Assembly: GCA_977020255.1 (NCBI GenBank) | Contig: CDROCS010001369.1 | Span: 248,001 to 312,000 of the forward strand | Origin: Obrimoposthia wandeli | Taxonomy: Eukaryota | Reading direction: 5' to 3' | DNA: 64,000 nt | In this document: one piece after another, positions 3,740-52,692 of the stretch | Layout: each line of letters starts with the position of its first letter | How positions within the stretch are numbered: the stretch's first letter is position 1 | The notes under the pieces: generated by a model | The model's input: only the letters and a program-made list of their open reading frames with translations | Told to the model about the DNA's origin: nothing | Database searches by the model: none | Translations under genes and position numbers: made by a program

Positions 3740-4090
3740 AAGATTGACAAAGCTAAAAGAAGGTTGATAACAAACTAAGAGAAAATTGACAGAAATAAAA
3801 GAAGGTTGATAAAAAACTAAAAGAAAGATTGACAAAGCTAAAAGAAGGTTGATAACAAACTAAGAGAAAATTGACAGAAATAAAAGAAGGTTGATAAAAA
3901 ACTAAAAAGAAAGATTGACAAAGCTAAAAAGAAGGTTGATAACAAACTAAGAGAAAATTGACAGAAATAAAGAAGGTTGATAAAAAACTAAAAGAAAGAT
4001 TGACACAAAACTAACAGAAGATTGATAAACTTAAAAGTAGATTGATAAACGAAAAGAAGATTGACAACACAAAAAGAAAAATTGACAAAA
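3740..4090. repeat. Tandem array inside LTR (~21-bp monomers in an ~85-bp higher-order unit)
   Basis: Alternating aaagattgacaaagctaaaag / aaggttgataacaaactaaga / gaaaattgacagaaataaaag units are directly visible. Confidence 0.9.
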
Positions 4091-4346
4091 CACAGAAAAA
4101 ACAGAAGGAACCACGCTCTACTACCCCTCTCGAAATACGGAACTGAGCCAGAATCATCTACTCGGGACCACCCATCTGTTCCTGGAAGCGAGGTCGATCA
4201 AGGGACTACAGACGCACGGAATCTAACCGTGCCTGGAAGGAACAACCAACGGGAATCGCCGGACTACTCTTGTGATCTTGAAGAGAGGCTTCTCGAAAAG
4301 ATCACGGTAAGTTCAGAAAGAGAGCGTGCATAAAAATATATAAAAA

Positions 4347-4930
4347 ATTTTAAACCAAAGTAACAATTGTATTAAGTAAAATTATATTGAATTTTAAAGC
4401 GTTTTTTGTGAACAAGTTGAAAGGAATTTTAAACCAAAGTAACAATTGTATTAAGTAAAATTATATTGAATTGTTAAAGTGTTTTTGTGAACAAGTTGAA
4501 AGGAATTTTAAACCAAAGTAACAATTGTATTAAGTAAAATTATATTGAATTGTTAAAGTGTTTTTGTGAACAAGTTGAAAGGACATTTAAACCAAAGTAA
4601 CAATTGTATTAAGTAAAATTATATTGAATTTTAAAGCGTTTTTGTGAACAAGTTGAAAGGAATTTTAAACCAAAGTAACAATTGTATTAAGTAAAATTAT
4701 ATTGAATTGTTAAAGTGTTTTTGTGAATAAGTTGAAAGGAATTTTAAACCAAAGTAACAATTGTATTAAGTAAAATTATATTGAATTTTTAAAGTGTTTT
4801 GTGAACAAGTTGAAAGGAATTTTAAACCAAAGTAACAATTGTATTAAGTAAAATTATATTGAATTGTTAAAGTGTTTTTGTGAACAAGTTGAAAAGAATT
4901 TTAAGTCAAAGTAAAATTATATTCAAGTAA
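4347..4930. repeat. 79-bp tandem array (~7.5 copies) inside LTR
   Basis: Unit ttttaaaccaaagtaacaattgtattaagtaaaattatattgaattgttaaagtgtttttgtgaacaagttgaaaggaa. Confidence 0.95.
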
Positions 4931-5819
4931 AATTATATTGAGTTTTTGAAAGAAAATTAAAGTGAACTCAACTCGCATTACAGGACATTTATATTGAAAT
5001 AAAAGTAAAACAGGTGAAATTGGATAAAGTAGATTCGAAATCGAATAAAGCTAAAATTGACATCGTAAGTTTTGATTTAAAGACTCTATAAATCAGAACA
5101 AGTTGTAACCACCAGTTTATTAGAAAGACTCTATAAATTAGAGCAAGCTTTGATTTTGTGTAAACCACCAAAATACTAGGAAGACCCAAATAAACTAACT
5201 AACCCTAAATTAAAATCGATACGTGGTTCATCCCCACTTGTGTAGAGACTTACAGAAGTCTTAGGAATTTTACTACAACTTTTTAGAAAATACGTACGTA
5301 AACGTATTGTTGTTTTAGTCTAGTGTGTTAACAATAAACGATTTCCTACGTTAGAAGCATTGTTCTAAACCCTTCAGATTAAGAGACATCGAAAAACAAG
5401 CACCTTCAGATAAGCATTGAGATAGGCAAAAATATATAAAAATATATAGAGATACGCTCACTTTCTCTTTTGTTTTATTTGTGTTTATGCGTTTTGTTAA
5501 TCATGTTTGTGATATTTATTAGATTATAATTGAGTTAGAGATTGAATTTGTTAATTCAATTAGTAGCCTCGCTGCAAAAATTTGAATTGATATAGTTACG
5601 TTAATTGAAATTGATTAAAATTTGAATAAATTAATACTGATTATTCTTATTTTTGTCGCTCCTACTATTTCCGGTCTACTACTTCTCAACTACGACAAAC
5701 AAACATAACATTATGCCTTAATATGTTAGTATTAATCGACATCTAAAGATTTAAGTATTCCGAAAGGGATATATTCATTTGACCAATCAAATATATACAT
5801 TAAAATTGATTAGGAAATC

Positions 5820-7359: not shown

Positions 7360-10300
7360 TGTTGTATGGTGATAGTAGTGATGGTGGTAATGATAGTAAT
7401 AATGATAATAGTAGTGATATAATAATAATAATATATTAATTAGATAATTAGTCTAATTAACATAATTGATATGGATCAATCTAGAAGCTACTTAGTAGCA
7501 ACAATTGATGTTGTTCACAGTTTTAAATTTATATTGTTATTTTGTGATTTGAATAAATTTATGAATATTCCTAAACTACTCTTCTCAGTACAATAACTGT
7601 ACAATAACTCATCTCAGTACAATAACTCATTTAAATAACTGAAATTCAATACCTGGCGACGAGGATACTACCGAGGATATCAGAATATATCCCAATTGGT
7701 TATTATTATCGCTACTATTTTAATATTGGTATCACTGGTGTTACTATTGTTGTTTTTGTCGCCGTACAACATCAAATTATTAAATAAATTATCTTGTTAA
7801 ATAAATTATTACTAGTGCCATAAGTTTACAGCGTTTTAAAGGTTTAAGTGCGCCAACTTTAATTCTCTACACAATCTCAAAATTACACAATCTCTATATT
7901 AGTATTAGTTTAGTATTTATTATTTTCAGCGGTTTATAGTACCTAGCGTAAAATGTCTAATAAGAATAGAGGTAGTTATAATGGCAATATGCCAATGTTG
8001 GAAAAAAACCCGAAAATTGATGATTTCAGACATTTCATAAGAATGTTTGATAACTTAATTATAATTAATGGCATCAAAGAAGTACAAAAACTACCCTGTT
8101 TTTAAATTCATTGGGGAGGGATGGATTAGACATTTTGATTGGTTAAAAGAACCTAAAGATATATATACAAATGTAGTTGAGAGATTTAAGGAATACTATA
8201 ATTATAACGGATCCATCCTCATATTCAGGAAAAGATTTTTTGGCTTAAAACAGGGCATAAATGAGATCGTGTGTTGCTTAAGACGTATGTCGAATGAATG
8301 TGGTTTTGAGAACCCAACTGAGATGATGATATATATCTTTGTATTTGGGATTCATAATGATAAGTTAGCGGAAACTTTATTAGTAGAGGATCCTAGTAAA
8401 TTAAGTTTAGAATTCGCAACGAATAAGGCTAAAGCGTTTGAGAGAGCTGCATCGCATAGGGTAATAATAAACGAATGCGGTGATGGTGTGAGTGTTAATA
8501 ATGTTAATGACCCAAACGAGGATAATAATGTAAATTTATTGAAACCAAACGTATCTAAACCTTATAATAATAAACCTTATAGCAATAAACCTTATATTAG
8601 TAGACCTTATGATAAAGTTGAAGATCACACGGCGTGTTTCCATTGCGGCTCTGTCAAACATCTAGCGAATAGTTCTGACTGTAGGGCAAGGAGTGTTAAG
8701 TGCCATAAGTGTGGTAAAATAGGTCATTATGACAAGTTCTGCTCAACAAAGAAGACTATAAATATGGTAACAGAGAGGATTCTAAATGTTAAGGATTTTA
8801 AACATAAATTACCTGAATGTAAATTCAATATAAATGATAAGATACTTACGTGTGTAATTGATACATGTGCTATAGTAAACATAATGCCAGTAACGTTTTT
8901 TCCCGGATATGAGATGGAAGCCGTCCACTTTAAAATTAACTACATATAATAACCATAAATTAAACATATTAGGTTATAATACTTCTGTAGTAACATATAA
9001 AGAGAAATGTTTAAATACCAATTTTTTGGGGGTTTCAGTTAATTCAGATCAAATTTTATTAAGTGCTGAGTTATGTTGTAACCTGAGTGTCATCACACTA
9101 CCGGTGTGTTCGGTATCATTCCTGAAAGATGACAGTGTAAAGAATAACTGTATCCGGAAAAATAAGTATAAAATTAAGATAAATGAAATGGTTGAACCAA
9201 AATATTGTGCACCAAGACGTGTACCAGCTATAAAAGATGCTGTGAAAAATGACTTAAATAAATTACTTAAAGATGATATAATATAATAGATCAGTGGATA
9301 TGAATGGTGTTCTCCACTTGTACCAGTATTAGAGAAAAATGGAGATGTGAGGTTATGTGTTGATTTCTGATACCTTAATAGTGCAGTTACAAGGGAGTCA
9401 TTCCAAATGCCTTCATTCTCAGAAATAATGGTTCAGTTATTTTTTAAATGGGACGAAGTTATTTTCAATCCTAGATGCGAAAAAGAGTTACCATCAAATT
9501 CTTATGGATGAAGAGAGTAGAAATACTTAGTTTTTTGCACTCCTTTTGGTCGGTACAGGTATAAAAGACTACCTTTCGTTTAAGTTCTGCACCAGAAGTG
9601 TCTAAGAAGTACATGGAACATATTTTAAATGGCTTAAAAGGTGTGATGTGTTATGTAGACGATATTTTAATCTTTGGAAAATCACAAAAAGAACATGACA
9701 CTAATTTAAGAACAGTGTTACAACGACTAAAATTATTTAATGTTATAATAAATGAAGATACATGTGAGTATAGGAAAACAACTATAAAGTTCTTGAAACA
9801 TATGCTAACACCTAATGGAATAGAAACGGATAAACAAAAAGTATTAGCATTAAAGTCATATCCAAAACCTGAAAATCATTCGGAGTTACGCACATTCTTA
9901 GGTTTAGCGGGTTATGTAGGTCAGAAATTATGTCCACATTATGCTGAATTAACAAGAAGATTGTGAGATATGTTGAAAACAGAAGAATTTACATGGACTG
10001 AATATGTAAATAATAACTTCGAGAGGTTAAAAAGTCAGTTGACTAAAATAAGTCCATTAAAGTACTTCGATAATGAATCGCATGTAGAAGTAAGGACAAA
10101 TTCTAGTGGCTATGGGTTAGGAGCGGTGTTAATGCAGCATAATAAGCCAGTAGTATATGTATCAAGAAAATTACTTGATGTGGAAATCCGATATTCTCAG
10201 ATTGAGAAGGAATGCCTAGCTGTCTTATTCGGAGTGGAACAATTAAAGATATATCTAATAGAAATTAAATTTACTTTATCGACTGATAATATGCCACTCA

Positions 10301-10440
10301 TATTTTTATTTAAGAAGCCAATAGACAAGTCGAATACTAGAATACAGAAATGGCTTTTACGAGTGCAAGACTATACATTCGATATGTGACACATACCAGG
10401 TAGATTAAATGACATTGCAGATATTTTATCACAAAATTTA
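7360..10440 (+). mobile_element. Ty3/Gypsy retrotransposon (Mag-like), decayed; integrase and 3' LTR absent
   Basis: Candidate 5' LTR TGTTGT...CAATAC (7360-7652), then a PBS. gag runs from ATG 7953 with two CCHC-type knuckles (CFHCGSVKHLANSSDC, CHKCGKIGHYDKFC). Then protease IDTCA; RT WCSPLVPV, RLCVDF, YVDD; RNase H GLGAVLMQ, YSQIEKECLA, TDNMPL, DIADILS. Multiple shifts. Confidence 0.9.
7654..7666 (+). promoter_or_regulatory. Primer-binding site, tRNA-Ser(GCT)-type
   Basis: TGGCGACGAGGAT is complementary to the conserved 3' end (ATCCTCGTCG-CCA) of animal tRNA-Ser(GCT) and lies immediately upstream of the gag leader. Confidence 0.8.
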
Positions 10441-11285
10441 TTGTGAATTACACAAGCATTTGAGCAACATACAAAAAATTCAGAAAATCAAACGATTCGA
10501 TAAGAAAACTACTGCTAATCAGACGAGCCACGGATATGGCCAATTTTACTGACATATCTAGCACACTCGATTAACCCGCGGAATATTGAGAAAGTAAGTT
10601 TAAGTGCAACCACATAATAAGTTGATTGAACTAACCCTAATCAGGTCACTGAATAACGACAATTGTAACCAACGACACCGAAAATCACGAACATACCAAA
10701 GTAACCGCAAACAACTGAACATCAGAAGCCGACGATAATAATATACAAGTACCGTTAACCGCAAGATCCGACATCAGCGCAATTTGTTAAGGTACAGTCG
10801 AGTGAAGTATATAAGAATCAATATCAGTGTACAATTCGCATAGTTGATAAATAAGAGCTGCAGATTCGAAAAATAGCGAAACAAACTCAGTGATGAGGAC
10901 AATTAACCGAACGACGGTCTACCAAAACTTGGTACAAACACGATAATATGTTCCAGCTCCACAGACTCTACTGAAGGACTACACAGTGAGCACAACAAAA
11001 TCAGCCACACTACAAAAGGTAATACATTCACATCGCATTGCCCTCACGTAATCAACTAATGAAAATAATTAAAATCGTCATACAAAAAGAGCTAAGTTAG
11101 TGTAAGTTGATAAAATACATTTTAAAAAATTAAACCCATAACGTACTCCGTCTGACACCATTATTTCATTTATCCATGATTGAGTTCACCTACCCTATTT
11201 AGTATGTTTATTTTATTTATAAACTTTGTATTAATTTGTATAACCACTGTTGTGTGAATTGATCTGTCTGTATTCTGTAGTAGTA

Positions 11286-12845
11286 TAGTCCACGAATTAT
11301 TGAAGGTGTATTCCGTTTAAACTAAAATTTTATTACGAAAAATTAATAATATCAAAAAGTGTAAATTGAAATAAATGAAAATAGAAGTTAGGCTATAAAA
11401 TAACATTATAAAACAAAAGTATATAATTTTAAATATAAATTTATATTGATTTTATATATATAACAGCATCATTTTTGGAATTAAGAAACGAATTTTTAAA
11501 GGTCCAATATTTAATTTAAATTTGTGAGGTTTTTATTAGTAAATATTAATTTATGTAGATTTCTGATTAATTATGAATATTCAACGATATATTTCAGCCG
11601 AAAAAAAATCAAATATTCAAAATGCTATCGATGAAAAGTTAGTAACAATGAAAATTATTAAAATATTTAAAGTATCTATAAATACAGATTCTCTGATTAA
11701 AAATTGATATCAATGTGTCAGAAATGGCAAATCATGTATGTATGATCCAAAATTATTAACAAAACAAGTCAAAAAGGCAATAACAAAATTGAAAAAGATG
11801 AAATTAAGGGTAACTGCTAGACATTCTCAAAAATATTCATGAAGAACTGTCATAACGATCTTTACAAATATTCCTCAAGTCATCGGATATGTTTATGTAA
11901 AGAAATATTCCAAAAAAAATTGTATTGTCCGATTTTCAGAAAGCTGTACGTGTTACAGCAATGAAGTCTTGGTTTGGTAGTAATATATATTTCAAAACAG
12001 TTATTTATTCAGATGAATATCGGTTTTCCTTAGAAGGACCAGACTATTTTCTAAGTTGGCAATTACACCATGATGAAAATTTAACACTTAGATATTTACG
12101 TACATTTGGAGGAAGTTCTCTTATGTTATTTGGCTATATTACTTATGATGGATTAATATCTATAAAATTTATCAATGGAACTATTAATTCCGATACATAT
12201 CTATCAATGATAAATAATGAAATTATCCATGCCATTCGACAGAAACTTAGAGATAAATTTATTTGGCAGCAGGATAATGCCAGGCCACACACAGCGAAAA
12301 GGATAATAAATTATTTCATTGATAATAACATTAAAGTTCTCCCGTGGCCTCCATATAGTCCCGATCTTTCTATCATAGAAAATGTATGTAAGATACTTAA
12401 AGATATGGTTTACAATGGACCTGCTATTCAAAATAAAGATCAGTTAAAAGCACGAATAAATGAAAGTGTGGAAAAAATTAATTCTAATCCTGAACGTATC
12501 ATATCTGTCTAATGGAATTGTTGATAGAAATTTGAATGTATTAAAGAGAGATGGTTCTAATAAAAAGTAACAATAATTTTATATATCTATTGTTTTCTTA
12601 TATTGTTGTAATAAATAGATTTTTACTGTTACACCTTGAATAATTCGTGTTTTTTTAAAAACAGCTACTTTTGTGTTAATATAAATTAATAAACTAATTC
12701 AAAAGATATTTATATAAAGTGTTTGTATAATTTAAATAGTATAATGTTTAGTTTATTTATGGCATGAGAACTAATTATTTATACACATTTTTTCTGGGCT
12801 AAGATTGTATTTAAACTATTTGCACCTTCAATAATTCGCGGACTA
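11286..12845 (+). mobile_element. Full-length Tc1 (DD34E) DNA transposon, transposase disrupted
   Basis: 25-bp TIRs tagtccacgaattattgaaggtgta / tgcaccttcaataattcgcggacta (2 mismatches) flanked by TA. ORF 11925-12512 carries YSDE, QQDNARPH and WPPYSPDLSIIE, with 34 residues between D2 and E. An inner copy of the TIR motif is at 12631-12649. Confidence 0.93.
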
Positions 12846-14689
12846 TATTTGTGAAATATACTTTTGATATGAATAAACTATCATTTATTTAACTTAATAA
12901 ATAACGATATCAGTTTAATATAGATCATCAAAATCGAACGTGCTGATTAGATTGCTATTAAAAGCGTTGTACATACAGGATATCGGTCGTATAAAATCAT
13001 ATATTTCTGCAATACCTTGGTAGCGGCTAGAGTCAAGACTATTTTACAAAGCCTATAAGTATTAGCCTAACCGACTTTATGTAAAGCCCCATGCAACATA
13101 AAAATATTTTTCGGCTTATTTATGATGATTTGTACACAACTTCACAGACGCCACAAAACAAACTTATCAGACAAGAGAATAAACAATCTAATAACCTTCA
13201 AAGAAACCCAATCGCTACAGAACTCACGATGAAGGCCTCCAGAAAAGGATTCTAAAAATATATTTAGGAAACCCAAACAGTTTTAGCACTGTTTTTGATA
13301 TCCTATAGACAAAGCTGAATAACTAGGACCATATTAACTGTGGTGACTTGAGACTAAAGCTAACTAGCATCGTGTTGGATGTGAAGCGATTGGCGTCCAA
13401 TCACCAGGCACAATGCTCGAATTAACTGAATTTCACATGAAAGTATATTATTTATTTAAACATAAATTCAATACATGTTTATTTTTTTGTAAATGTACTG
13501 CTGAAATCTTAAAATTTCTAAAGGGGCGCACAAAATTTAAATTCATTTTTAGAAGAGGAAATTAGATTAAAAGGGTTTAGAAACACTGATTTACAACATT
13601 TCATAACTTACATCGTAATTCCATCGATTGTTTAATTTATGTGAGAAATGACTAAAATGTATGGTCCTGGCTAAGGACATATTAAGGACAAATTTAAATT
13701 AATTTAAAAAAAGTTAAAATGGCTAAGAGCTATTAAACTCTAAAACCAAGGAAAAGGAGTTAATTAAACTCAGGTGACCTCTAAAAGCTATTAGTAAAAG
13801 AGTCACCTGAATTTCAAAGAGGAAGAATCTTTGTGACTGTAATAGTCACAACCAGCAATGACACAAAACGGCAACATTTTTAGAGTCAACTGATAAAAAT
13901 GTAGAAAGAAATAAACACGTAAAAGTTGCAGAATCACGATTGCTTATTCAGAGAAAGTGATATGAGACTAAGAAAAACGGTCACCTGAAACGTCGTGTGT
14001 GTTTTTAAAGTCAACAGCGAAATTTATGTGACTGACGTAGCCACTTGAGTAAGAAGCAGAGAATTACTGATATAGTTTGGGAATTGTAGTCAGCCACATC
14101 AAAGTAGCAAAGGACGCTTTCCTATTGGACGGAAATGACGACTATAAAATCGATTGGTTTCTGTTGAAGAACACAATTTAGTTGACTTTAGGAAATACAC
14201 AATCTGACAAATGCGAGAAATTTCGAAGAGACGAAACGAAAAGACTCAGTACAACCCAAACCGACAAACTCAACGTGAGATAAAATCATTTCATTTCAAA
14301 TAGAATCAATTTTATAAGTTAAATTAGGATCATTTTATAAAAGTTAAACTGTACATTGGAGTCATTTTTTACAATTTAAACTTTGAGTTATAACCATTTT
14401 GTAAAAGTTCAGATTTAAATTGGGATCATCTTGTTAGGATACGAAAAAATAAAGTAATACATTTAATAAGTTAGGGTTAGGAGTAGGTGGATGTGAAGGT
14501 TCCGGGCCAGTATCCCCCCTCAATACGTATGATGACATCATTTTACATATCATCAATGAAAATACCCCTCCCCCTGATGACTAGACATTAGTATGACAAG
14601 CATATCTTAGTTTACTTGTATTTACATTATTACATAATATCACTATTCAACTATTTAAACCTAATAAATTTAGAAATTTTCATAATCAC

Positions 14690-15290
14690 AATGGCACAAC
14701 TCCTCAATAAGAAGAACTTCAAGCTTTTTGAATGTTAAAAAAAATTGTCAAGAAGAAAAGAAGAGATCAAGAAGAGAAGGAACCTACAGATGAAGAAATA
14801 TGTCGAATGTATGATACCATTTGTCAGGATGAAGAGGTGCGGGAAATCATATATGGTCCACAAATCTCCAGTATGGAAACAATTATAATTTCAGATGATG
14901 AAGAAGAAACTATACCTACGAATATATTCGAAAGATCTACATTCAAGCAACTTTATAATGAATTCAGCATACCTGAATCTTACGGACTCTGGACAATCGA
15001 GCAGAAACATGGACATCTCGAAGAAAGCATTATTGATAAATGATCTAAATATAACTACATAGATTTCGAAGAAAGGGTTAAATAATGTCTAGATTGGAAT
15101 CATAGAGTCAAAAATGCATCAGAGGTTAAAGAAGACAATTCAACTATATTATATAATAACCTTTTACGAGAGCTAGATGAAGAATATGGCCCTCTATCCA
15201 CAAAGCAGAAAACATTCATGGAGAATAGTGAGGAATCCTCATATGAAAACTTTGCCAATAAATTTATAAAATTCGAACTGATAATTTTTT
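14690..15290 (+). pseudogene. Unknown acidic ORF of the Polinton-like element, convergent with PolB
   Basis: ORF 14732-15043 continues in frame past stops to ~15290. No motif recognised. Confidence 0.35.
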
Positions 15291-15677: not shown

Positions 15678-18600
15678 TCATAAAAAAGAATAATGACCAT
15701 ATGCTTTTGATTCATTTATGCTTATCCATTTCCGCTTATCATCACTTGAACTAAAGGCTACTTGGTTATTTACAATAGTGAAAATCTGATTATTTATGCT
15801 TTTAAAGTTTTCTTGTTCTACTTTTAATATTTCACTACTATTAAAAGTATTTACATAGGCAGAATGAGGAAATTTAGTATTTTTCGATATTCCTTTCGCT
15901 TTATGATTTTCTATACCATTATTAAATGTCAAGCAGTATAATTTAGGTCTCAAAAACACCCATTCTTTATATTTACAAGCTTCACTTTCATCCTTAAATG
16001 TACCTACCATACTATTCAACAAATTGTTATATAAAGGATGACTATCTGGATAATTTGATGTATCCAACAAACCATCAGAGATCATTTTAGGTAGCAATTG
16101 ATTATCTAAGTTAACACCAACACATTCCAGAAAAATGAGTCAGTATCACCAGTTACTATTTTAATACTACAATTAAACATTTTTCGATATCTCTCCAGCT
16201 CTTCATATTGCAGCTGATACATTTGTAATTTAGATAAAACTAGAATTGCCTGTCCTATACAGATTGGTCTATCAAGAGAAACCATTTCCTTATTCATTAA
16301 ACAACCAAATCATCAGCTCCAAACTCGAGATTTCTTGAATTTAAGTTTATAAAAATTATTCTCAAAATATTTTTTTGATTTAACAGTCTCTGATTGTTTA
16401 TCCATATTATAGTCTATATATTTCTTAAATCTCTAGCTTGTTTAGACTGAATAGCCCGATGTACACAAACGACTTTTACTCCAAGAGAAGCATAAAAACG
16501 AAGGAGACACAAATGAATAATATAATTCCTCTTTGGTTCGTGAGTAAGGAGTCATTTTTCTACTTTACTATTTGGTGGACCCTGTTTAACTGGAGCTATA
16601 GGTAAATCATCCAACTTATATTGAATATCTGCAGGTATATCCATATCTACTTCCAATACATAACCATATTCATCATTCACATCCTCCTCATCGATCTCAA
16701 ATAACAAGCACATAAGATCGTATTCATCATCAATCCATTTGAAGTTACTATATGGTAGTGGTTGTGAAAGAGCCCATCCATATAAGTTATTTACATCTAT
16801 GTACAATAAATCCACATTTTCAGAAGACTCCACATGATGCTTATTTACAAATGTTATACCACACGAATACCATTCTCAAAAAATCTATACATTTCAGGAT
16901 CTTTCAACAATTCTACATCATACTCCAATATTTTTAAAGCACTAGTCCATGATAAACTGGGGGTAGAAAAGAAATGAGCTGGATTTAAACCATCTTCTTC
17001 TAATTCCTTTCGTCTAAATGCTTCAAAAACATCGGCAAGCAGATATACATCCAACTTTAAATATACTAGCATGTAATCACTCAAAGTTTTCCAATTTAAC
17101 ACATCAAACAATTTAGTATCTAAATCAGTTACAGGAGGTAAAATACCATTCAAAATGTTTTCTGATGTAGCATAGTTATATGGAAATATTCTTTTTGATT
17201 TTATTTGACTATTTGGAAATTCTTGACTCGTTAAAGGTTGATTAGGTATCATCTTAACTAAACGAGCCAAGCTATCACTCATAATTTGATGAATCAATAA
17301 ATCGAAAAATACCGAATTTTGTTCTTACTATAAGAGTCATAAACTTCTCTGTTGATAGTGGTATACATGATATATTCCATGAGCTAAATTTAGATATGGC
17401 ATGTTTCATAATATGATGCATATCATACCCTTCAAATTATGGAATAATACTGGTAAAGTTGGAATTTCGCTAATTATACAAGAGAGATTACATTTGTTAC
17501 ATGCAGATCCTAAATATCTACCAGTTATATGTTCATGACCACGAACAGGTTTTTCATTAACCTTTTTACACAAATAACACGTTTTTGAGGTATTATATGC
17601 ACGCCAATCGGCATTAGTCATTTGTATATTTCTATGAGCATTAGCATCAAACCAAGGTTTTACGTTTTACTCTAGCAGATCTTATAATTTTTGCAGAAAA
17701 TCTTGTATACATGTTTTACCTACAAATTGATAATAATTATCAATAGTTGGTGTTTTAAACAAAAGACCTGCTGCGGATGGTAAATTAATATGCTTATGTA
17801 TATGATGCGGTGCTAACAATGATTCAAAATCTGCATATACTAAAACTTTGCAGCAATAGTTTTTGATAAATCATCAAACTTTGCAAAACGTTTTTCAGGC
17901 ATTTTGTAAAGTGATTCTCCTTGTTTGCTTAATGAACATAATTGAATATGTTTATCATATGCATTCTGCATCCTAAAACCATGCAAACATTTAGAGCACC
18001 ACTTACTCTGAATTCGTATTGGAATGCTATCACAATCAATATTTAATAAACGATCTAAGTTTACCACTCCAAAATAATGAAATGTTCTATCATTTTCTAT
18101 CAGTAGCACATTGATGGTTTCATCAGATGGATTACTAGTTTTATATATAATATCAACAAAGGGATGTTTAAAAATATTTTCATCATTATATTGAAAACCA
18201 TTGTCTATTATAACTAAAAACATTTATCGAAAGTTTGTTTTGGTTTTCGAATGTAGGCAAACCTATAAGTTTCATTGGCATCTGATTAGGATCATACTTA
18301 AAGTTTTTCAAATATGGAATATAATGTGAAACACGATAACGATGGTCAATTATTTTATTACGTATTTGAACTGTGAGAATCGCATACAAAAAACATAATG
18401 AATCATAGTTTTGTACATTTACAACTGCTTTTGTTTGAGATAGTGCAAGAGGAATAGGTATATAACTACTACCACTCAGATACGTTACATCAGAATATTT
18501 TGTTAAGGTAAAATTTATTTGTAATATACGCAGCACTCGTACTCAATTCACTATAGTTGGCAATTTTCTCATCTAACGTTTGATATATATCATTCAAACT

Positions 18601-19199
18601 ATCAGCATTATACTCAATGGCTTTATGCGAAAGATACCATTGTTTCATTTCGCCATAATCCTTTGTAAATAAAACAAGCGCTACATATTGTAATTTAGCT
18701 TTACGCATCCTATCAACAACATTCTCAATTTCCTGTTTAATACTATCAGGAACAAATAATTTAGTTACATCATCAATAAAACCATGTGTGATTACAATAT
18801 GACTATTATTTAAATCACTCCTTTCTCCAAAACCAACCGGATGTACGTCTTTAGTAGGCATATTAGTGATAGATTTATTTTACGTTTAAGTGACGGCTTA
18901 CCAATCGGAGCATATGAACATTTTTTTCTTTTAAAATGACATAAATGATTCTTATGAAGCTCATAAAAAGTTTCATAATTATCAATCGAACATATATTAC
19001 AATTAGGACATACATAGTAATTAATACCATTATGTGTAAGTCTATAATATGGTTTCATGATAACATGACAATTATTATGAGTTACATTTAAACGATAAAA
19101 TGGGTATGGTTTACATAAAACAAAAGGACCCGACTGTTCTGATGAATGCTGTAATGGTAACTGTGATGATGTAGATTGTTGTTTCATTGGTTGATCCAT
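15678..19199 (-). pseudogene. Protein-primed family-B DNA polymerase (Polinton-type), fragmented
   Basis: Consecutive minus-strand ORFs give GSSYIPIP..KAVVNVQN.DSLCFLYAI, CSKCLHGF..YDKHIQLC, GHEHITGRYLGSACNKCNL (EndoVII-like), VLFHNLKG, YLKLDVYLLADVFEAFR, YIDVNNLYGWALSQPLP (motif A), FENNFYKL (start of motif B, remainder apparently deleted), TGDTDSF (motif C), FLRPKLY, KAKGI, DDKR. Confidence 0.92.
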
Positions 19200-19251
19200 C
19201 TGAATATATACATATAAGATATTGATTACAATCTATTTTTTGTTAATCACG

Positions 19252-19683
19252 ATTACCAATATCAATTATAAATGAACTGTTTTACAAGATGTTTCTCATC
19301 TAAAGTTTATATGGAAACGTAAACAACATATAATCAAAACTATGGATTATACTATTATGATATTCAAGACTGGTAGATGCAGAATTATGGGATGCAAGAC
19401 ACCATTATTATTTATAACAACACCATTGAAGATTAGTATTGATAAAATTCAATATATTACAATAACTACAAATCTTAGAAAATCAATAAATTTACATAAG
19501 CTATCACGTAAACTAGCATGTATGTATGGACCAAAATTTTTTCCAGCTCTTCGGTTGAATAAGTTTGACCCATTATCTGTAAATATTTTCTCTACTTTAA
19601 AGATCATCATTTTAGTTTTCAAATCATTAATTTCAGTGATTGCTTATATAGTAGCATATATTATATATTATCTTTCATCATGA
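19252..19683 (+). pseudogene. Divergent TATA-binding-protein-like ORF
   Basis: One frame reads ITNINYK*..TIMIFKTGRCRIMGCK..IQYITITTNLRKSINLHKL..MYGPKFFPALRL..PLSVNIFSTLKIII. This matches both TBP repeats (LIFxSGKxVxTG; IQNIV...INLxxL..YEPExFPGL..LIFxSGK). One stop at 19273-19275. Confidence 0.72.
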
Positions 19684-21879
19684 TGTAATACTTTTTGAAA
19701 CAAGGTATGTCCCGATGTTTCACATAGGTTTGTTTTAATAATATATTAATATCATCAGGTATGTGTTAACCTTTACATAGTTATGTTCTCAGTTATGAAT
19801 GAAAGATAAAAGTTATGTATATCAAGCTTCAGAATCATCTATGATATTATTATTCATTGTTTGAAGGGTTGGATCGCATATATTTAATGACGAAGAATCT
19901 CTGATGTTTCGTTTATCATTGTTATGTATTATATTTATTGATAAGTGAATAGTCAGGATCTACACGGTTAAATAATCTCATGAAAAATATTAAAGTTATA
20001 TGCTGTTTATTTTAATATGATTTAATAAAAATGTTTTTTTATGATTTCAAAACTTAACATTTCGTAGAACTTTGTTTTAAATAACAGATTAGATAAAGAT
20101 AAAGGATATTAAATGTAATATTTCTGAATTTAAAATTAATACCAAAATCAATTAGTACAAATAGAAATACGTATTTAAGCAATATGTTATTGATAAAAAT
20201 GTCTAAAAAGCTAACAAATATCTCAGGATGATGAAGAAAACATATTACTCTTATTTAGAGCTTCAAAAAGTTTAGAATACCTCCTATTAAAAATATATTG
20301 GAAAAATTATATATTCAGTTGCCATTTCGCATTCCAAGACAAATACTTAGACAAAGGGCATTTGAAAACGTTTTTATTCATAGTCTTATGTTCAACAATA
20401 GTTTCAAAAAGTAAACAGAGTTAAGTGCTTTTTATAGCAATTATCAGCTAGACGGTAGCGCTATATTAAATGATATATATTTATGTTTAATTTGAAGCAT
20501 CACTAAAATTTCATGAAAAATTGTGTTTTAAAACCGAAAACTTGTTTAAAATAATTATTATGTTAACTTAAGTAAATTAATTTTTTTCATTACTAAAAAA
20601 TTTAATATTTTTGCGTGACCAATGGTGTTTGGCTAATAAAGTAAATCAAATGGTTGAATAAAAGATAAAAATTAAAATAAGAAAATCATAGTTAAACATT
20701 TTTAATTACCCAAATAATATAATATCAGAGTAATAAAATTTCATATTTTAAATAATTCATATAGTCAGAAGCAGAAAATATTTTAAGATTAAAACTATTA
20801 TTAAACCAGTAGTTTCATACTAGAAATGCACACGAAACTTTTGTTTGCATCGGTCAGAAACATTTCATTACAAGCTGTAGTCAGTTGTTCGAGCGATATG
20901 ACAGTTGCAAGTAGTGTCATGTAGTGATAGAGCTGGTGTTTGCAGTCATTATAAACCAAGAACGATGATCGTGAGTAATTGACCAAGTCTGAGCAACACA
21001 ATCGAGATTGAGATGATTGACGTTTAAGTAATCGGGGGGTGGGTACTGGCCCGGAACCCTCACATCCACTTACTATTAGGTTATTTATACAAAGTTTACC
21101 TTATTTTGGTTTTATTAAAATAGAAGAGAAATTAATTAAGAACGATGATCGTGAGTAATTGACCAAGTCTGAGCAACATAATCGAGATTGAGATGATTGA
21201 CGTTATCGTTATTAAGTACTGAACCCTCACTGTTAGGTTATTTATACTAAGTTTACCTAACTTTGGTTTTATTAAAATAGAAGAGAAATTGATAATTAAA
21301 AAAAAAGTAAATTAAAAATATTTATATGACAAAGTTAATGTAGGCCTCATAATAGTAATGCACACAAAACTTTTGTTTGCATCGGTCAGAAAAAACAGCG
21401 ATCAGCCACGAGAGTCGCAGAACAGCGCTACAGAACCTAAATCAATATCACAAGTGGATCGTGAAGAGGAGTCGAGAGTATTCCAGTAGAGGTCAAATCC
21501 AAGTATAAAAGTAATTATATAGGGACTAATTGTACACAATTTTCAAGAGGCTCATGAGGAAATCCAGTTCATCGGATTAGACGTTAGGAAGAGGAACCAA
21601 ATTGAAAAGAATCAGTGAAATTGTTTTTGGATCAAGATAAGTTTGGCACATCTCCGAAGGAACTAATTAAAGTATTATTCGACCAAGAGTATAATTTGAC
21701 AAAGCGCCAAAAAGCATTAATTAGAATTTGGTGAGTGAATTACAAAATAAAATGTATCACTTTGTAATTGTAATAATCGACAAATAAGAAGAAATATTAA
21801 TAAAATTTATAATTATGTGCCTGTAATAATATACCATTAAGAAGTAATATTAATAAAACGGATACTACTGTACTTTGAT

Positions 21880-22996: not shown

Positions 22997-25900
22997 TGTT
23001 AAAATTAGGAAAAATAAAATTCTAACTATTTATATTGAAGATTCTACCTTATAATCAAGGTTAAAAAAATTTAATATTAAAAATAAAACGATTTTAGAAA
23101 ACAAAAATTGAATGAATTGGGACCTTGATAGGTCATGAGAAAAAGTATAAAAGAAAGTTAAAACCGCAAATTAGGGCACTCAAAAAATCTGTGTATAGAA
23201 CCCAAAAAGCTTAGAAGTTTTGAATAACAATCTAGAGATCTAAATTAAGAAGACAGAAAATTAAAGTTAATCCAGTAGGAACAATACCATCAGTGGAAGA
23301 TTCATTTGGAGAATTCATTATCGCCGAGAAAATTAACAGCTGTAGGCTAGGAAAACACCATTAGTTGTAGTAAGGAACAACTAATCGAGTCGGAAAATCT
23401 ATTATCGGCATCGGCAGCAAATAATCCGAGCCATTACCGACATCCGCCAATTTCCACAGTGCAAGAATTAAAGTAGTGGGTAAGTACTATAAATAAGAAT
23501 CAGAATTGATTCCCCGTTTACACTCACATAACTACAAGAGGCGACAGCAGAATAGATTCGATAAATCAGAATCGAACAAAAAGATAAAGAGCGAGTTCAA
23601 GGACGATTGAAGACGAATCTAATAACGCTCGGAGGACATCGTGGAACGCCACTCTCGGAATACCTTGAAGGACGACGCTCTCGGAAAGTGGAACTGCGCC
23701 ATCTTGAGAAGAGATCGACATAGAACTGGTGAGGAGAGTATTTAGTAGATAGTCTCATAATGCTTACAAAGTGTGAATTATCGTAAAGTATTGAAGTGTA
23801 ATATTGTGAATTATCGTTAAGTATTGAAGTATAACTTTTACTCTATTTTATTTATGAATCACAATTCATTCTACTTTCAATCTATGTGTACTAGGCATCC
23901 TCTTGGTGCTAAGTGTTGTTTGGATTCATCCAACTGCCCATGCTGTGGGCCTGCTAATGGAAACGGAAAATTTCGTTTTCCAGATTCGAGTCACTGGCGT
24001 CATCCTTTTCCTGAGTGTCTTGGGTGGCTTCCATGACAGTTCTCGGTGCTACGGCGGGTCAATTTCTTCCAAAAACGACCACTGTCCCTGCAGCGCACTT
24101 CTGCGCTTCAATAACATGGCCAGGAACTCTGTAGCTACACAGACTGACTTCGATGTAAGGACTATTGGGCCCACAACCACAAGAGAACTACAACTCTCTC
24201 CTGCTCAGCGGTCTAAATTTTCACAGACCCATTCTCAGCTTTCGAAAGCGGTCAAAATACAAAACTCTCGGCCTCGAAGAAAGAAGGACCCAGCATCAGC
24301 GGTCAAAAAACTCACAACATCTAACGATGAAGCTATAAATAAGAAGGTTTCAGACTCTTAGCCTAGAAGAAAGAAGGACCAAGACCCAACCCCAGCGGTC
24401 AAAAAACAAACATACGACAAATAAGCCAGAAGTAAGAAGGATCAAGAAAGAAGTATCAAGGTTAACAACATCTCTAACCCAAAATCCAGCAAAGAAGATA
24501 GAAGCTACAAGACCCAGACTCCGGAACAAGAATCAAGAAGCTCAAATGCATCAGTCGATCTCATCAAGGACGCCATCTCTCTCCACCGACAAGCTTATGG
24601 ATGTGGAGACGCCAATGCTGCTGCTGAGGAAACTGCGCTCCGGATCGTGAAGGCCGTACACCGGTTCATTCCGGCTCCTGGACGCCGCCGAGACTCCGGA
24701 GCAGACGAGGCCCTCCGCCGGCGGGATCTGCGGGGCAACCTTGTGGCCAACCAATCTGGTGATTCTTTTAAGGGAACCAGGGGGCCTTGTTAGTAGGCAC
24801 CAGCATAGGGGGTGGCTCAGAGTAAGCACCTGACCACCCCATCTGGCCTCCGGGAAGAGAGTAGGCTGGCTATATGTAGGAATAGATATAGGCCTACTCT
24901 GCTTTTACTCAGCAACCCCTCACTTGAAGTTGCTACCACTGTGGCCCCCTCTCATCCTGTAGGTAGTTATGGTCACAGTCGTATTATAAGGAGGTCTGTC
25001 AGTGATTCTGGTAATCTAACTACACTACCGCACAGCCAGGCTGTGTTAGGCCACACCACACCAAATAGGAACACACCTTCACATTCACCAACACAGGCCC
25101 TTGCCACCACCTCACCTTTGCACTTTTCACCACTTGTTTTACCTTCACTTGATGAGGGAAACTTTGCCATCACACACTTTCAGTCTCAACATTTCCACAC
25201 TTTACATGGCACTTCATCCACACCTCACACCTTCTCACAACATGTTCTACCTTCACTTGATACCACTTAACATACCATACCTTTCACCTCTCTCTGTTTT
25301 GACACCTGTTTCTCACTTGCCACACCATGACCAAACTTCTTCTTCTTCTGATTGTGTTATGGCTGATATTCTTGTTTCTCCTCTTCACAATTCACATCTT
25401 TCGCCTGTTCTGACACCTGAATTTTTTCACTCACCTCAACACTATGACGCCTCTAATTCTCCAACTGAAATCTCTTTCGACTGCTTTATGGCCGATAACC
25501 TTAATTCTCCTCAGTTGCCATCTCGGCCACTATCTAAATCTTCCAGAAAACTTAAGGTCTTACAACATAAACACCCAAAGCGCCTCTGCATCACGACACC
25601 CTCTCTTATCACACTCTCACAAACGGTTCTTCCCACACACAATCTCACTCTCACTGTTGCCCCTCTTCTCTCCATGGACACATGTACTTTCACTCAAACT
25701 TTGACCACTTCCACAACTTCATCTCCTACTTGTTGCATTCCTCCCAGAACTACAACCACATCATCATCTCAAGTACTTGTCACATCGCCAACTTCCGTTT
25801 CATCTCATCAACCTTTTTCTCTTGCTTCATATGTTCAAGCACTTGCTTTGGAATCCTCACATTTCTCATCCCACTTGAATTCTAGTCCATCATCTCCCTC

Positions 25901-28900
25901 TTCGATCACCACATCTTCTTCTAGCTCCCACATTGCTTTTACTGTTGCTTTTTCGCGGTATTCATCATCTAGGAGTGTTGGACGCCAATTGGATTCTTTC
26001 ATGCCTTCTGCTTCTTCTCTTGGTGTCTCACTAACATTCTTCATCACTACACTTTCCCATCCTCATTCACGGTTTTACATATCTGTGCCTTTCCAATCGT
26101 TCCATTTCAATCACCTGGGTCTACTGACTGTGGTATCTATCTTGCACATTATGCCATCCACTTTGCAGGACAATCTTTTCTCGAGATCCATTCCACCAAT
26201 TGACGTGGGATCTTTAAAATGTGTTCTTCGAGAACTAGTTGAAATTATCCTGCTCAAACGTCTACAAACAGTCACTCCTAACTCACCACACCCCATTTTC
26301 ACTCAAACTCTTGAAGACCTTTCTGATAACCGCATCACTTCTGAAGCTTCACTGCTCAATATATCACGTCTTTTATCCTTTCTTTCACCTTCTCCATCTT
26401 TTCCGCATCGGACAACTACTGGAAAGAAGCCTAAGCCATGTTGCATTGTAGAGAAACATGAGAAACGAAACACTCAGTTTCCTACAAGATGCATATATAC
26501 ACGCTGCTAAAAAAACGGTTACCAACATCCTTCAGCCTTTGACTCCCACCATGTTCCTAAACATTGAAGATCTGATCTTGCATTTTACGAATGCACATCC
26601 ACCACAACCTGACTTCTCTCTCCTCCCATCTCTTCCACACCTTGCAGACTTTATTTCTGACACTCTCATCACAAAAGAAGAAATCATTACAGCTTTAGCT
26701 GCATGTGAATCTGCTTCTTCACCAGGTTCTTTTAACATTTATTTTAAATAATGGCAGACCATAGATCCACAATGCACTTTCCTACTTGCTCTCTTTAATC
26801 ACATTCTCATCAATCTCGAAATTCCTCCTCAATGGGCTTCCTTCAATACCATCCTCATCCTTAAACGCAACAAACTCTTCACCTCCACAAACATATCTTC
26901 CTGGCGTCACATTGTCACCACTGACTCCTCATACAGGCTCTTCACTCGCATCTTCAATGCCCGCCTTCTTAAATGGATTCGGGCTGGAAATCATATTAAT
27001 ATTGCTCAAAATGCACTTGGTCATCCTGATTCCTGCATTGAGAATGCCTTTAAGGCTCAGGCTCTCATCAATCACACCATCGCATCATCCACTCCCACTG
27101 AACTCCACACCTGTTTGCTAGACCTTGCTGATGCCTTTGGCCCAGTTCATCACTCTCATCTTTCACACGTTGTCTCTTATGGGTCTTTCTCCTCACACCA
27201 TTCTTCTTATTCAATCTCTCTGCACAAACTGCACCACTCAATACGATATGCTGACCCCCCATATTCCTGTTGTGAAGGTGGTCAAGCAAGGGTGCCCTCT
27301 GTCAATGATCATTTTCGTCTCGTCATTGACTTTCTTAATACGCTTCTGCTCACCAACTTTCCTGCTGTCACTCTTTATGGCCAATCACTTTCTGTGTTGG
27401 CCTATGCAGATGACATGGTTGTTTTTGCTCGCACAAACGCTCACTTGCAACTCTTCCTCAACAGCCTGGCAAAAGTTGCGACTGCTGCGCATCTCACCTT
27501 GCATCCTTCCAAATGTGGTTATCTTGTCACTTTCTCCCAACACCGTTCACATCCTCCTTCCACCACTTCTCAACCTTCTCTTCATCTTTACGACCAAGCC
27601 ATTCCTATGGTTTCCAGTGACTCTCTTTATATTTACCTTGGTACTTCATTCGGTCAGTGTAAAAAAGATGATCTTTCTTCACTACTCTCACAAGCACTTG
27701 AAGACTGCATCCACCCTTCAGTCTAACCTTCACCCAGCGCAAAAGATTCATGTCTTAAAAACCTTCATCTTCACCAGGTTTCCCTTCTACTTTCGCACAC
27801 ACACCATTAATAGGTATTTTCTTTCTCGTCCACACCCTCCAGGCTTCGACCAACGCCTTCGCTCGCTCCTTCGTGCTAGCTTCGAAGTCCACTTTAAGAC
27901 CCTCTGTTCCGTTCTTCTACACCTCCGCGGAACTCGGTGGTATTGGTATTATGCCACTTAATGCTGAATACATGTGTCAGTCCATCGTCTATGTGTTTCG
28001 CCTCTTCAACTCTCACAATAAGTCCACCAATGCAATAGCAGTAGCTGACCTTAAGAATGTCGTTTCCTCGTACTTTAACCTTCACAATGCACCTTCCATC
28101 ACGACTATTCTTGTTTGGTTAGCCTCCAAAGCAGACGTCAAGCATGACAAATAGGGGCGCTTCTCATCTGTCTGGGCTAGGTGTCGTAAGTCATATGCAA
28201 AACTGAGAGTATTGTTTGGTAACTGTACAACATTCACCATGAATAACACCTATTTTGATATTCACTTTCAATTTCAACAGAACACTTATACCTTTTCGAC
28301 GAATACCAAAAACGTTACCACATCAACACTCCATTACCTCATTCGCCTTTCATACCATCATGTCTGGAAGAACCAACCAGCCCAGGGTATCATCACACAT
28401 CCTCTTCGGTGTTCTGCTCCAACCAACAAAATTATCTTTCATACTGACTTGTCACCAAACGTCTTCTTCTTCCTGCTTCGAGCTAGAACTAACACCCTTC
28501 CATTCAACTACACTGGCAGTCAACCTTTAAGGGGTCTCTCCACTTCTTGCAGACGTTGTGGATTCAGTCACGAGTCTATGAAGCATGTCCTTAATGCCTG
28601 TTCGTTCAATAGTGCATCCATCACTCACAGACACAACGTCGTGCTCCAATTCCTTGCACGCAAACTGCAAGACATTGGTATTTTGGTTGATCCTGATAAG
28701 TCCAAACCATATCTTTAAAGGTCGTGCTGACATTCCATCAATTGTGCGCAACCAGCGATCCGATCTTGTCTTTAGGCATGCTAAGGGAAGTTTTGCCATA
28801 ATTTATGTGAAGAATCCGTTCGACGACCCAGCAAATTATCCGTCCATTGTTGCAAACAACCAAGACAAATACACAGCATATCCCCAACATCTTACCCACC

Positions 28901-30712
28901 TCAAACATGCCACTGTCTCTACACAAGCTTTCCTTGTCTCTTCTTTAGGTACTGCTTTAGAGCCCAATTTTAGCCTTCTTCAGTGGCTTGGGTTCTCTAA
29001 AAGGTTTCCCTTTCCATAGTTTTTCAGTGTTCTAAGTTGGCTGTCCAACAATCTCAACGCATTTTCATCAATCACATCACTTCCTTACTTCATCACGTTG
29101 CACCTCCAGCCTCATCATCTCTGGATCATATCACCTAGTTTTCGTTAGTCTTTATTCACACCACTCTCTCTACATGATCCAATGCTGTCTCTATTTCTCT
29201 TGTCCACTTTCTTGCACTCTGCGTTTTACTTCTCTTTTCTCGTCACTTGCTTTAATTTCTTTCCAGTCTCTTCATCTCTGGAACACATGTTTTCACAATT
29301 GCTTGCCATCGCAATCTTTTCTACACTCTTTCTACTGTATCACTTATCATTTACCTCTACTGCCTCTACATTACTTACCATAGCCAGCCCACTCTATTGC
29401 ACTGTGTCAAATTTTCTGTCACATTGCTCGCCTTCTCAGCTGGTTGCTGGTCCGCTTGATCCTGTGCACTGCTCTCCGTTTTTCATGCAGATTCTACGAA
29501 TTCCATTGCGTCCTGGATTTACCCATTGCAATTTACACTCCATCATGCCTGTCTTCAATCCTATCTGGATCTATCAGCAACTAGTCTGGCTGCACATCGT
29601 TCAATCTCTCACCCTCTCTTGGACTTGGACCCCTTTCTACTTGGCATAGGACTCGCCATCCTGTACCTCCTATGGAATGTCCTTTCATAATTTTGGTTCC
29701 CAACCTGCGCTGATTTTCATGAACACTCTAGTTACTCTCTCATTGTTTTTTTATTTGTTTCTTCCTGTGTCAACTTCATTCTCTCCTCTACGAGATACAA
29801 ATGGGTCACCCGACCGTTTTTACCAAGCGGTGCCCATTAATGGCACATTTGTTATTCAATATGTTATTATTATTATAATTGTAAATTATTGTAAAGTATT
29901 GAAGAGACTAATATTGTGAATTATTGTAAACTATAGAATTGAAATTTCGTGAATTATTGAATTTAATTGAATCGTAAATTAATTAAGTGTAAGATGTGAA
30001 AGCATTGCTGTAACGTTACTATTTGAATAGTTATTGCTCTGAATATAACATGAGTTGCGTATCCATTTAAATTCAAATACTGACTTACATAGTTTAGAAA
30101 AAAACACTATCTAAGGAGTTCTGTGAGAAAGGAGTAATATTAGTGAAAGGTCATCCAAATTCCCGGCGTGTTAGAAGCGGTGTAGTTGTTGTTAGACGTC
30201 TTACCCATTTGGTTGTTAGACATTTTTAATTGTGTTTTCTTAATAAATTGTTTCCTAAAAACCGACGAGTTGATCTATAAGTCACCAACCGTATCGACGT
30301 AAACCCCACTAATATATAGGTTGGCCGAGGGACAACCACGTTACGGTATTCTAAGCGTTGTTGTATTTGAGGATTGTTGTGTCCCAATATTACCGGAGGA
30401 GTATCGTTAGCGTCGCTTGGCTACAGCTGTTTTCCATATATTCGGTCTAGGTTGCTAACCAGATATTTCCTTACTTCAACGGCTAATCCCTAGGTCCACA
30501 TAACACCGCATTAGTTTTGGGACCCTACCAGTTATTTTGTGAACACACCACAACACAATAGTACAAAAATCCTTCAGATTTGAGACTAAAATTAAGTAAG
30601 ATAAACACAGGTAGGCCACATCCATCTGTAAGCCCTATTGCTACAGAACTCACGTTGGGGCCCTCCATACGAGGATCTACTTGAATAAAGAGTTTCAAAT
30701 AGAAACCCCAAC
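22997..30712 (+). mobile_element. LTR (~1.7 kb net) split by a non-LTR insertion
   Basis: Starts TGTTAAAATTAGG and ends agaactcacgttggggccctcc...tagaaacccaACA, matching the end of the 50020-52684 LTR. A 33-bp array (gtgaattatcgtaaagtattgaagtgtaatatt) resumes on both sides of the insertion. Confidence 0.8.
23835..29873 (+). mobile_element. R2-superfamily (RLE) non-LTR retrotransposon, NeSL/R5/Utopia-like, decayed
   Basis: RT: ITKEEI..SSPGSFNIYF, WRHIV..YRLFTRIFNARL, LDLADAFGPVHH, KQGCPLS, LAYADDM, YLG. Then GGIGI, RARTNTLP, CCHC finger CRRCG..ESMKHVLNAC, RHNVVL, and RLE relic RSDLV..IIYVKNPF..KY. Ends in a (TAT)n tail; candidate TSD TATAA (23830-23834 / 29874-29878). The 5' boundary assumes 23835-24800 belongs to the element. 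Confidence 0.85.
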
Positions 30713-51126: not shown

Positions 51127-51190
51127 GGACTCACGAACAACATCCAGAGAAATTAAAGGTATAATTACCGTAAATCGTAAAATTACCCAT

Positions 51191-52280: not shown

Positions 52281-52692
52281 TGAAAAATCTATAATTTGAG
52301 CTTATTCGCGAGTTAGAGAAACGACTCTAAAATCTCGATTACCCTTAACTTAAAATCGATACGTGGTTCATCCCCACTTGTGTAGAGACTTACAGAAGTC
52401 TTAGGAATTTTTACTATAACTTTTTAGAAGATACGTGCGTAAACGTATTGTTGTGTTTTAGTCTAGTGTGTTACCAATAAACGATTTCCTACATTAGAGA
52501 ACGTTGTTTAAACCCTTCAGATTAAGAGACGTCAAAACAAACACCTTCAGATAAGTAATTGAGACAGGCAACCATAGCACTAAGTAGGCCACGACCAACT
52601 TTAAGACCTGCTTCTATTAGAACTCACGTTGGGGCCCTCCGCACACAAGAGGATCTATACAAGTCTCGTATAGAAACCGCAACATATTAAAG

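Follow-up and report, generated by a model that had tools for sequence, protein, structure and literature searches.

Cellular TATA-binding protein (TBP) contacts the 3' half of its box through repeat 1, binds TFIIB through residues E284, E286 and L287, and offers the convex surface of its helices as the binding place of cellular cofactors such as TFIIA. Four phenylalanines of TBP introduce kinks at steps 1-2 and 7-8 of the box (PMC10005294), and the stirrup is a contact site for cofactors, for example TFIIA at the N-terminal stirrup (PMC5526994). TBP-like proteins of herpesviruses read TATT late boxes (PMC4893493); those of the BcRF1/ORF24/UL87 type are large, with an N-terminal domain that binds the Pol II CTD, and belong to a six-protein complex (PMC7498053). 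For Polintons, gene control is essentially undescribed in the literature searched. Figure legends in Starrett et al. label a TBP-like gene for MELD viruses (PMC8502044), so the bare fact that TBP occurs in polinton-like elements is already in print.

The window analysed here, a stretch of 64,000 nucleotides from Obrimoposthia wandeli, carries a two-repeat TBP-like frame at 19252-19633 (+), head-to-head with the gene of a protein-primed family-B DNA polymerase (PolB; 15678-19199, -). The initial annotation had read the ORF at 19252-19683 (+) as a minimal TBP-like gene, and the assignment to TBP holds: with X at its stop codon, the frame matches PF00352 at 35.6 bits (cut-off 22.9; residues 65-125), it matches archaeal TBP in a PDB search, and intact relatives adopt the TBP fold. 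The gene at 19249-19633 is, however, no longer a working ORF in this copy, since codon 19249-19251, the family start position as defined from sister copies, is not a start codon, codon 8 (19273-19275) is a stop, the only internal one in frame, and the 3' end is deleted. Family similarity ends at 19633 in all 29 of the 29 other copies compared (range 19630-19635), and the last ~15 codons of the ORF belong to sequence that full-length copies carry close to their right end. Indeed, window positions 19627-20079 (+) match 6 full copies at 82-89% near their right end and mark the junction of an internal deletion, by which the window copy lost its SSB, ATPase, pX, integrase, capsid and protease genes. 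The first ATG of PolB lies at 19199, so that 49 nt separate it from the family start at 19249, in agreement with the ~50 bp and opposite strands originally reported. On both of its strands this divergent intergenic stretch (19200-19248) has canonical TATA-like words, YATAAAC being absent, and it is, from its sequence, a candidate bidirectional early promoter.

The element is delimited by 6-bp target-site duplications (14476-14481 and 21075-21080, with a 5/6 match) and by terminal inverted repeats (TIRs) at 14482-14519 (+) and 21037-21074 (-); the left one begins with AG, is 89% complementary and shares its terminus with 16 other ends. TIRs starting with AG and a 6-bp target-site duplication are ends of the Polinton/Maverick type, and the duplications are perfect in full copies L039/L040 and L033/L034. 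Within these limits lie a broken acidic ORF1 (14691-15277, +), matching the ORF of subfamily B at 54% in tblastn and without a Pfam match, and the PolB gene, in which frameshifts and stops leave 8 tblastn blocks over 3 frames and whose endonuclease-VII-like insert gives a weak PF02945 match below the cut-off. The window copy is an internally deleted, non-coding relic bounded by TIRs and a target duplication. Positions 20080-21010, inside the right arm, matched none of the copies compared, and a local duplication of ~180 nt (20951-21293) straddles the right TIR.

Several other repetitive features share the window. A Gypsy-type LTR retroelement at 53501-64000 (+) encodes a zinc knuckle, envelope-like Monjiviricetes fusion ORFs and a BIR domain, and has an unusual gene order with two aspartic protease domains before the reverse transcriptase; a decayed Gypsy-type element occupies 8068-10389, and a Tc1/mariner-type DDE element with TIRs 11284-12847. 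A GC-richer, strongly skewed stretch at 25152-29019 resembles a decayed non-LTR retroelement. Tandem arrays with units of 35, 64, 79 and ~43 nt were detected at 50429-52421, 4324-4957 and 3737-4057.

At least 151 matches to the TBP family, many of them without stops, were found in the 1.35-Gb genome (150 of 39,236 candidates were scored), which argues against chance. Twenty copies were read over ~20 kb each. Full-length copies measure ~13-15 kb and carry, in order, the acidic ORF1 (+), the protein-primed PolB (-), TBP (+, 144 aa), a 132-aa ORF, an A32-type ATPase, a pX-like ORF, an integrase with chromodomain, a penton-like ORF, a PZ-like ORF, a 410-aa capsid-like ORF, an adenain-like protease and a 147-aa DEDD-like ORF. 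Names such as capsid, penton, pX, PZ and DEDD are given here by resemblance, without Pfam support; ORFs of 410 aa and ~340 aa, candidates for the double and single jelly-roll capsid proteins, are conserved in the expected order and gave no Pfam match. Support from Pfam was obtained for PolB in a sister copy (PF03175, 44.2 bits; cut-off 25.8), for the A32/FtsK-type packaging ATPase (PF04665 above cut-off, in full copies only) and for the integrase, deleted in the window copy (PF00665, E 6.6e-7, 30 bits, just below the cut-off of 32.6, plus a chromodomain match). The protease was traced by tblastn at 33-42% from L115:5488-5886, itself a PF00770 match; a direct PF00770 scan of the genome returned no match, and its controls were blank too.

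The model of the 132-aa ORF adjacent to TBP (L059:1668-2063; deleted in the window) resembles single-stranded DNA-binding proteins (SSBs) of the phage T7 gp2.5/Enc34 type with middling Z-scores of 7.0-7.1, and a search of the ESM Atlas gave no usable match for it. A TFIIB/TFIIA-like partner was considered for this ORF and rejected, since the model matches gp2.5-type SSBs. No Pfam match to TFIIB or any other transcription factor appeared in the 56 scanned of 97 unassigned ORF clusters, and no RNA polymerase was seen in these elements.

Subfamilies A, to which the window copy belongs, and B share one layout with TBP head-to-head with PolB; three further families found in the genome possess this TBP gene too, but apart from PolB and interrupted by a short intron. 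This predicted GT-AG intron occupies the same phase-1 position in the 9 copies resolved (35-45 nt, one of 71 nt; 5 others were unresolved), the intron-bearing copies including L164 (7651-7690), L166, L168, L170, L172, L176, L180 and L211; it is absent from subfamilies A and B and from the 36 metagenome genes scored. In all, no fewer than five Polinton subfamilies with a TBP gene, frequently nested, were counted in the genome, and dozens of equal-scoring ATPase copies without stops belong to a Polinton family that is very young and present in high copy number. Next to or inside TBP-bearing Polintons lie accessory genes for a BIR-RING apoptosis inhibitor, a dual-specificity phosphatase, a ubiquitin E2, an LRR protein and KilA-N (sites L164:8047-8943, L170:8719-9483, L109:225-719, L116:1918-3327 and L135:7145-8002). 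As for the host, its TBP genes carry introns and are close to human TBP, which marks it as an animal; its two canonical TBP paralogues lie head-to-head less than 1 kb apart (L071/L078, C238 ~871800-874000), and its TRF-like genes on C60 and C1092 have a core without introns.

The TBP family extends well outside this genome. A protein search recovered 43 homologues among 50 candidates (32-61% identical), a profile search of 50% clusters gave 66 matches at E<1e-30, with ordinary TBPs among the weaker ones, and in a JGI scan 133 of 228 stretches held up, of which 80 were retained. These metagenome loci were all picked through the TBP gene, and many contigs come from few samples; other element genes occur in 57 of the 80, and most of the remaining 23 are short contigs. 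The neighbours were ATPase (30 loci), integrase (20), homologues of the SSB-like ORF (19), DEDD-like (14), capsid (12) and PolB (8). Scans of IMG/VR yielded one giant-virus TBP locus (L083), two weak ATPase loci and the query's own contig, and no Polinton context. TBP is, then, a conserved accessory gene of one Polinton clade, that is, of integrating DNA viruses; as the initial annotation had stated, it lies outside the standard Polinton genes, being a genuine gene of the element that is not in the canonical core set.

Co-occurrence with PolB was borne out in 8 of the 80 metagenome loci, but in none of these 8 are the two genes head-to-head: PolB is convergent and distant in L092, L109, L116 and L150, and co-directional, 1.5-5.6 kb upstream of TBP, in L135, L143, L148 and L152. 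Elsewhere TBP is divergently paired with the SSB-like gene or the ATPase (L085, L099, L100, L101, L104, L114). A conserved TBP-PolB coupling was thus rejected, the arrangement being absent also from the three other families of the own genome; the pairing exists, but within subfamilies A and B only. The shared bidirectional promoter proposed for the pair agrees with the sequence there: in the 26 subfamily-A copies of the intergenic stretch, TATA[AT]A was found on the TBP strand in 23 and on the PolB strand in 22, with YATAAAC in 1.

Between subfamilies A and B, the TBP gene shows a dN/dS of 0.17 (150 of 210 pairs; dN 0.127, dS 0.769), akin to the 0.14 of the ATPase, and the ratio rises to 0.89 within A (150 of 210 pairs) and 0.45 within B (45 pairs). 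The gene was selected while the lineage was active, and copies decayed once inserted. A quick IQ-TREE analysis of 55 rows separated the 46 family rows (own_L170 and own_L176 among them, probably of the same subfamily) from 9 canonical ones with SH-aLRT 99; the latter were partial exons of host TBP1 and TBP2, a host TRF-like, a plant-like and an archaeal-like protein, one giant-virus TBP and three others. The separation from host TBP and TRF that the annotation had proposed to check is therefore present in this tree, whose nine outgroups are too few to name the donor of the TBP gene.

The AlphaFold2 (AF2) model of the intact sister copy L053 (38-row alignment) reached a pLDDT of 94.4, and all its 144 residues align to human TBP 164-336 with Z 13.6 and an rmsd of 2.5 Å, the next unrelated row having Z 6.4; in the Foldseek check suggested earlier, the top matches were likewise TBPs. 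In PF00352 (63.8 bits), repeat 2 only was matched. The model has the saddle with both repeats, repeat 1 with its strands but neither helix: residues 1-81 contain no helix save a 3-residue turn, and L053 falls ~29 residues short of the human span to which it aligns. Longer family members keep, in their sequences, long repeat-1 linkers.

Residue conservation was counted over 154 aligned proteins (L053 plus collected proteins 125-230 aa long, a minority of them of known genomic context; the canonical-like or doubled P0166, P0176, P0188 and P0116 were left out). Since the set was gathered with the family profile, conservation is partly circular; the substitutions nonetheless lead away from canonical TBP. 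In human numbering, three of the four intercalating phenylalanines, whose conservation the annotation had singled out for testing, are kept (F214 in 149/150, F288 in 153/154 and F305 in 151/152), and the fourth is lost, position F197 being P in 139/143 with a loop register uncertain by up to 3 residues. N167 (126/133) and P289 (135/154) are also kept. By contrast, base-contact positions have changed and yet are near-invariant, with V220 replaced by R (147/151), T222 by M (153/154) and L303 by N (151/152); N257 has become S/T (152/154), V259 T/S (151/154) and V169 mostly N (97/134). The acidic stirrup is preserved in sequence, with E284 in 136/154, E286 in 152/154 and L/I at position 287 in 144/154 (L287 in 118/154). 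Hence the canonical hallmarks of four Phe, the N/V/T/L set of minor-groove contacts and, in this subclade's model, two helices per repeat were not found, and the family protein is, as residues and model indicate, a stripped TBP with a re-tuned DNA-binding face.

A family-specific box, YATAAAC, was scored at -60 to -11 of non-redundant starts (upstream regions less than 70% alike). It precedes the ATPase (24/28), pX (14/15), PLA2X (10/11), major capsid-like MCP (8/12), DEDD-like (16/25) and penton (5/12) genes, is scarce before the SSB-like genes (4/20 and 1/8), integrase (2/18), PZ (1/8), ORF1 (1/4) and protease (1/6), and is nearly absent before TBP (1/54) and absent before PolB (0/6) and a zinc-finger ORF (0/8). 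Shuffling predicts less than one per gene class, and no copies were seen on the reverse strand. In 81 NATAAAC sites, position 1 is T in 59 and C in 18, and position 8 is A in 67 and G in 14. TATAWAW, in turn, occurs in 28 of 54 TBP starts. The near absence of the box from TBP and PolB starts points to two promoter classes. In subfamily B the SSB gene and ORF1, the leftmost gene with no gene upstream, are boxed as well, so that the box is not purely 'late' in its distribution. The three intron-bearing families show it at -32 to -42 of ATPase, pX and MCP, and their PolB genes lack it.

The spacing of the box is anchored to the downstream ATG and not to the upstream stop: the distance to the ATG has a median of 39 (IQR 36-43; n=77, window -60 to -17), and that to the upstream stop an IQR of -28 to +169 (n=70), with 13 of 70 boxes overlapping the stop codon. 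A box is present at 20/55 gene ends that have an ORF close downstream versus 6/56 that have none, and boxes inside an ORF fall in all three frames. Boxes overlapping an upstream ORF leave false protein motifs, YKQ at the ATPase end and INK at the PZ end (e.g., L067:9057, L068:2005).

A second Polinton class of the same genome, of Alpha type (PF21738 capsid, PLA2-integrase fusion, Adeno_PX; copies L204, L205 and L213 on C5437, L194 and L195), provided a control. The TBP profile found no match better than E 2 in its ~15-kb copy; the strong TBP matches in L211 and L214 come from neighbouring copies of Beta type. None of 29 starts over 11 Alpha-type genes is boxed, T-run/A-run sequence preceding them instead, and 1 box was found in 14.7 kb versus 7.2 expected, compared with 7-16 boxes versus 3.9-5.8 expected in eight TBP-bearing elements. 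The control is one family in one host, with a single copy (C5437) spanning the capsid gene to PolB, so the 29 starts are not independent and amount to one independent contrast, between Alpha and Beta elements that differ in many genes besides TBP.

These data lead us to consider it probable that the element's TBP is a virus-specific late-promoter factor that reads YATAAAC and provides a one-gene switch from early to late expression. Early on, ordinary TATA words would let host TBP transcribe TBP and PolB, and in subfamilies A and B these words would lie in a common divergent stretch of 50-70 nt. The element's TBP would then bind YATAAAC ~30-45 nt before ATPase, pX/PLA2X, capsid and several other genes, the repeat-1 changes facing the changed 3' end of the box, and its conserved acidic stirrup would recruit host TFIIB and RNA polymerase II, activating rather than repressing these genes. 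The suggestion in the initial annotation that the element encodes its own basal transcription factor would thus most fittingly be read more narrowly, as a factor that gives late genes their promoter specificity. Early and late timing, like the match between protein and box, is here a prediction from sequence.

Cellular TBP is not blind to such boxes. TATAAACG has 27% activity in plant cells with cellular TBP (PMC10005294), and wild-type TBP accepts C:G at the variant position via Hoogsteen pairing, which avoids a leucine clash (PMC4402545). Host TBP can use TATAAAC at reduced efficiency, and a viral reader is not strictly required. It might even be that host TBP reads YATAAAC as a deliberately weak TATA box and that the element's TBP is a repressor or decoy, occupying the boxed or host promoters or titrating TFIIB while failing to support initiation; that residual activity and the absence of both repeat-1 helices, a region of cofactor binding, from the subclade model would fit, but we judge this unlikely, because conservation of the acidic stirrup equals that of the DNA face, longer members retain long repeat-1 linkers and the boxed genes are those that a virus must express strongly. 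Quite improbable, in our assessment, is a separation of protein and box, with the box serving another reader or marking the 3' end of the gene before it, and with the TBP-fold protein at work in replication or packaging on origin, AT-rich or single-stranded DNA. TATAAA and CATAAA resemble variant poly(A) signals, and the boxes that overlap stop codons could be read in that way, but the spacing tracks the downstream ATG and the leftmost gene of subfamily B is boxed with no gene upstream. For replication speak the usual position of the gene beside the SSB-like gene (19/80 loci) or PolB and the binding of single-stranded DNA by the divergent Giardia TBP (PMC12209930); the family protein, unlike the Giardia one, keeps three Phe and the stirrup, and the element's terminal repeats are GC-rich and lack YATAAAC. 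Binding of AT-rich DNA or an origin, the other role put forward originally, is accordingly disfavoured, the family-specific box standing before gene starts and not at the termini.

Whether the protein is late-specific at all bears on a further reading, in which it would substitute for host TBP on all promoters of the element or serve a Pol III/Brf-type system. The boxes before SSB and ORF1 in subfamily B would suit a general factor, and L287 of TBP, kept in 118 of 154 proteins, also contacts Bdp1 and Brf2 (PMC5526994). We hold this to be very improbable, as boxed starts are almost nil for TBP (1/54) and PolB (0/6) and in other families the TBP gene has introns of spliceosomal type, which point to Pol II. 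Finally, next to no room is left for a neutral passenger or for recent retrocopying of host TBP: damage to the window copy and the high dN/dS within A would fit, but the family forms a clade separate from host TBP1, TBP2 and TRF-like, evolves at 0.17 between subfamilies and recurs widely in Polinton context. A host retrocopy restricted to this copy, which the annotation had named as a way to be wrong, was rejected on the same grounds.

If the late-promoter reading is true, the protein would be the smallest two-repeat TBP-type factor and an independent origin of the strategy of a viral TBP with a private TATA box, and would be evidence of a regulated virion-producing phase in integrated Polintons. 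A matched TBP and box would predict transcription start sites and divide genes that lack annotation between two classes of expression; with its 144 residues, a TBP whose specificity has changed in nature would offer a handle on how TBP reads DNA and on the surfaces needed for initiation. The value lies in the family, not in the dead window copy.

Compared with known systems, the family protein shares with cellular TBP (PF00352; human 5fur_A, yeast 7o4i_O, Sulfolobus 1mp9) the same two-repeat saddle (Z 13.2-13.6, rmsd 2.5 Å, 24-28% identity), three of four Phe and the acidic C-terminal stirrup; it differs in its 144-aa length without N-terminal extension, the absence of repeat-1 helices, the loss of the first Phe, five base-contact positions fixed to other residues and its separate clade. 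Many NCLDVs carry their own RNA polymerase. The TBP fold is also present in giant-virus (NCLDV) genomes (BFVD matches and IMG/VR locus L083), and the single NCLDV TBP in our tree groups with canonical TBPs. The elements have the same protein-primed PolB, rve integrase, A32-type ATPase, protease, pX-like gene, TIRs and 6-bp target-site duplication as Polintons/Mavericks, Beta adintoviruses and MELD viruses (Starrett et al., PMC8502044, 10.1101/697771). The weak endonuclease-VII match of PolB fits the HNH insert described for some pPolB2 (PMC10748475), the Beta adintovirus/pPolB2 class being a candidate placement, and the capsid has no PF21738 match, unlike that of the Alpha-type class. In the available parts of Starrett et al., TBP is a legend label in the section on non-animal datasets, without residue, distribution or box analysis. 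The words TBP and TATA occur 0 times in the available texts of PMC10748475, PMC11161782, PMC8097293 and the PMC8502044 supplement (~4 million characters of text, not figures), and in the accessible Polinton literature, with subscription journals, GenBank and Repbase outside its scope, no treatment of the TBP family, its residues or its box was found. With the herpesvirus proteins (EBV BcRF1, KSHV ORF24, HCMV UL87), the family shares as a proposed principle a TBP-fold protein and a TATA variant before late genes, with no RNA polymerase of its own. It is far closer to cellular TBP, BcRF1 coming at rank 31 (E 1.2e-3) in the BFVD search; its entire 144-aa chain aligns to the TBP core, the N-terminal CTD-binding domain being absent, and its box is YATAAAC, with binding demonstrated for herpesviruses and predicted here. 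On balance we lean towards a widespread clade of Polintons of 12-18 kb that would run a herpesvirus-like late programme through a single 144-residue TBP, with altered specificity for YATAAAC and independent of TFIIA-type cofactors.
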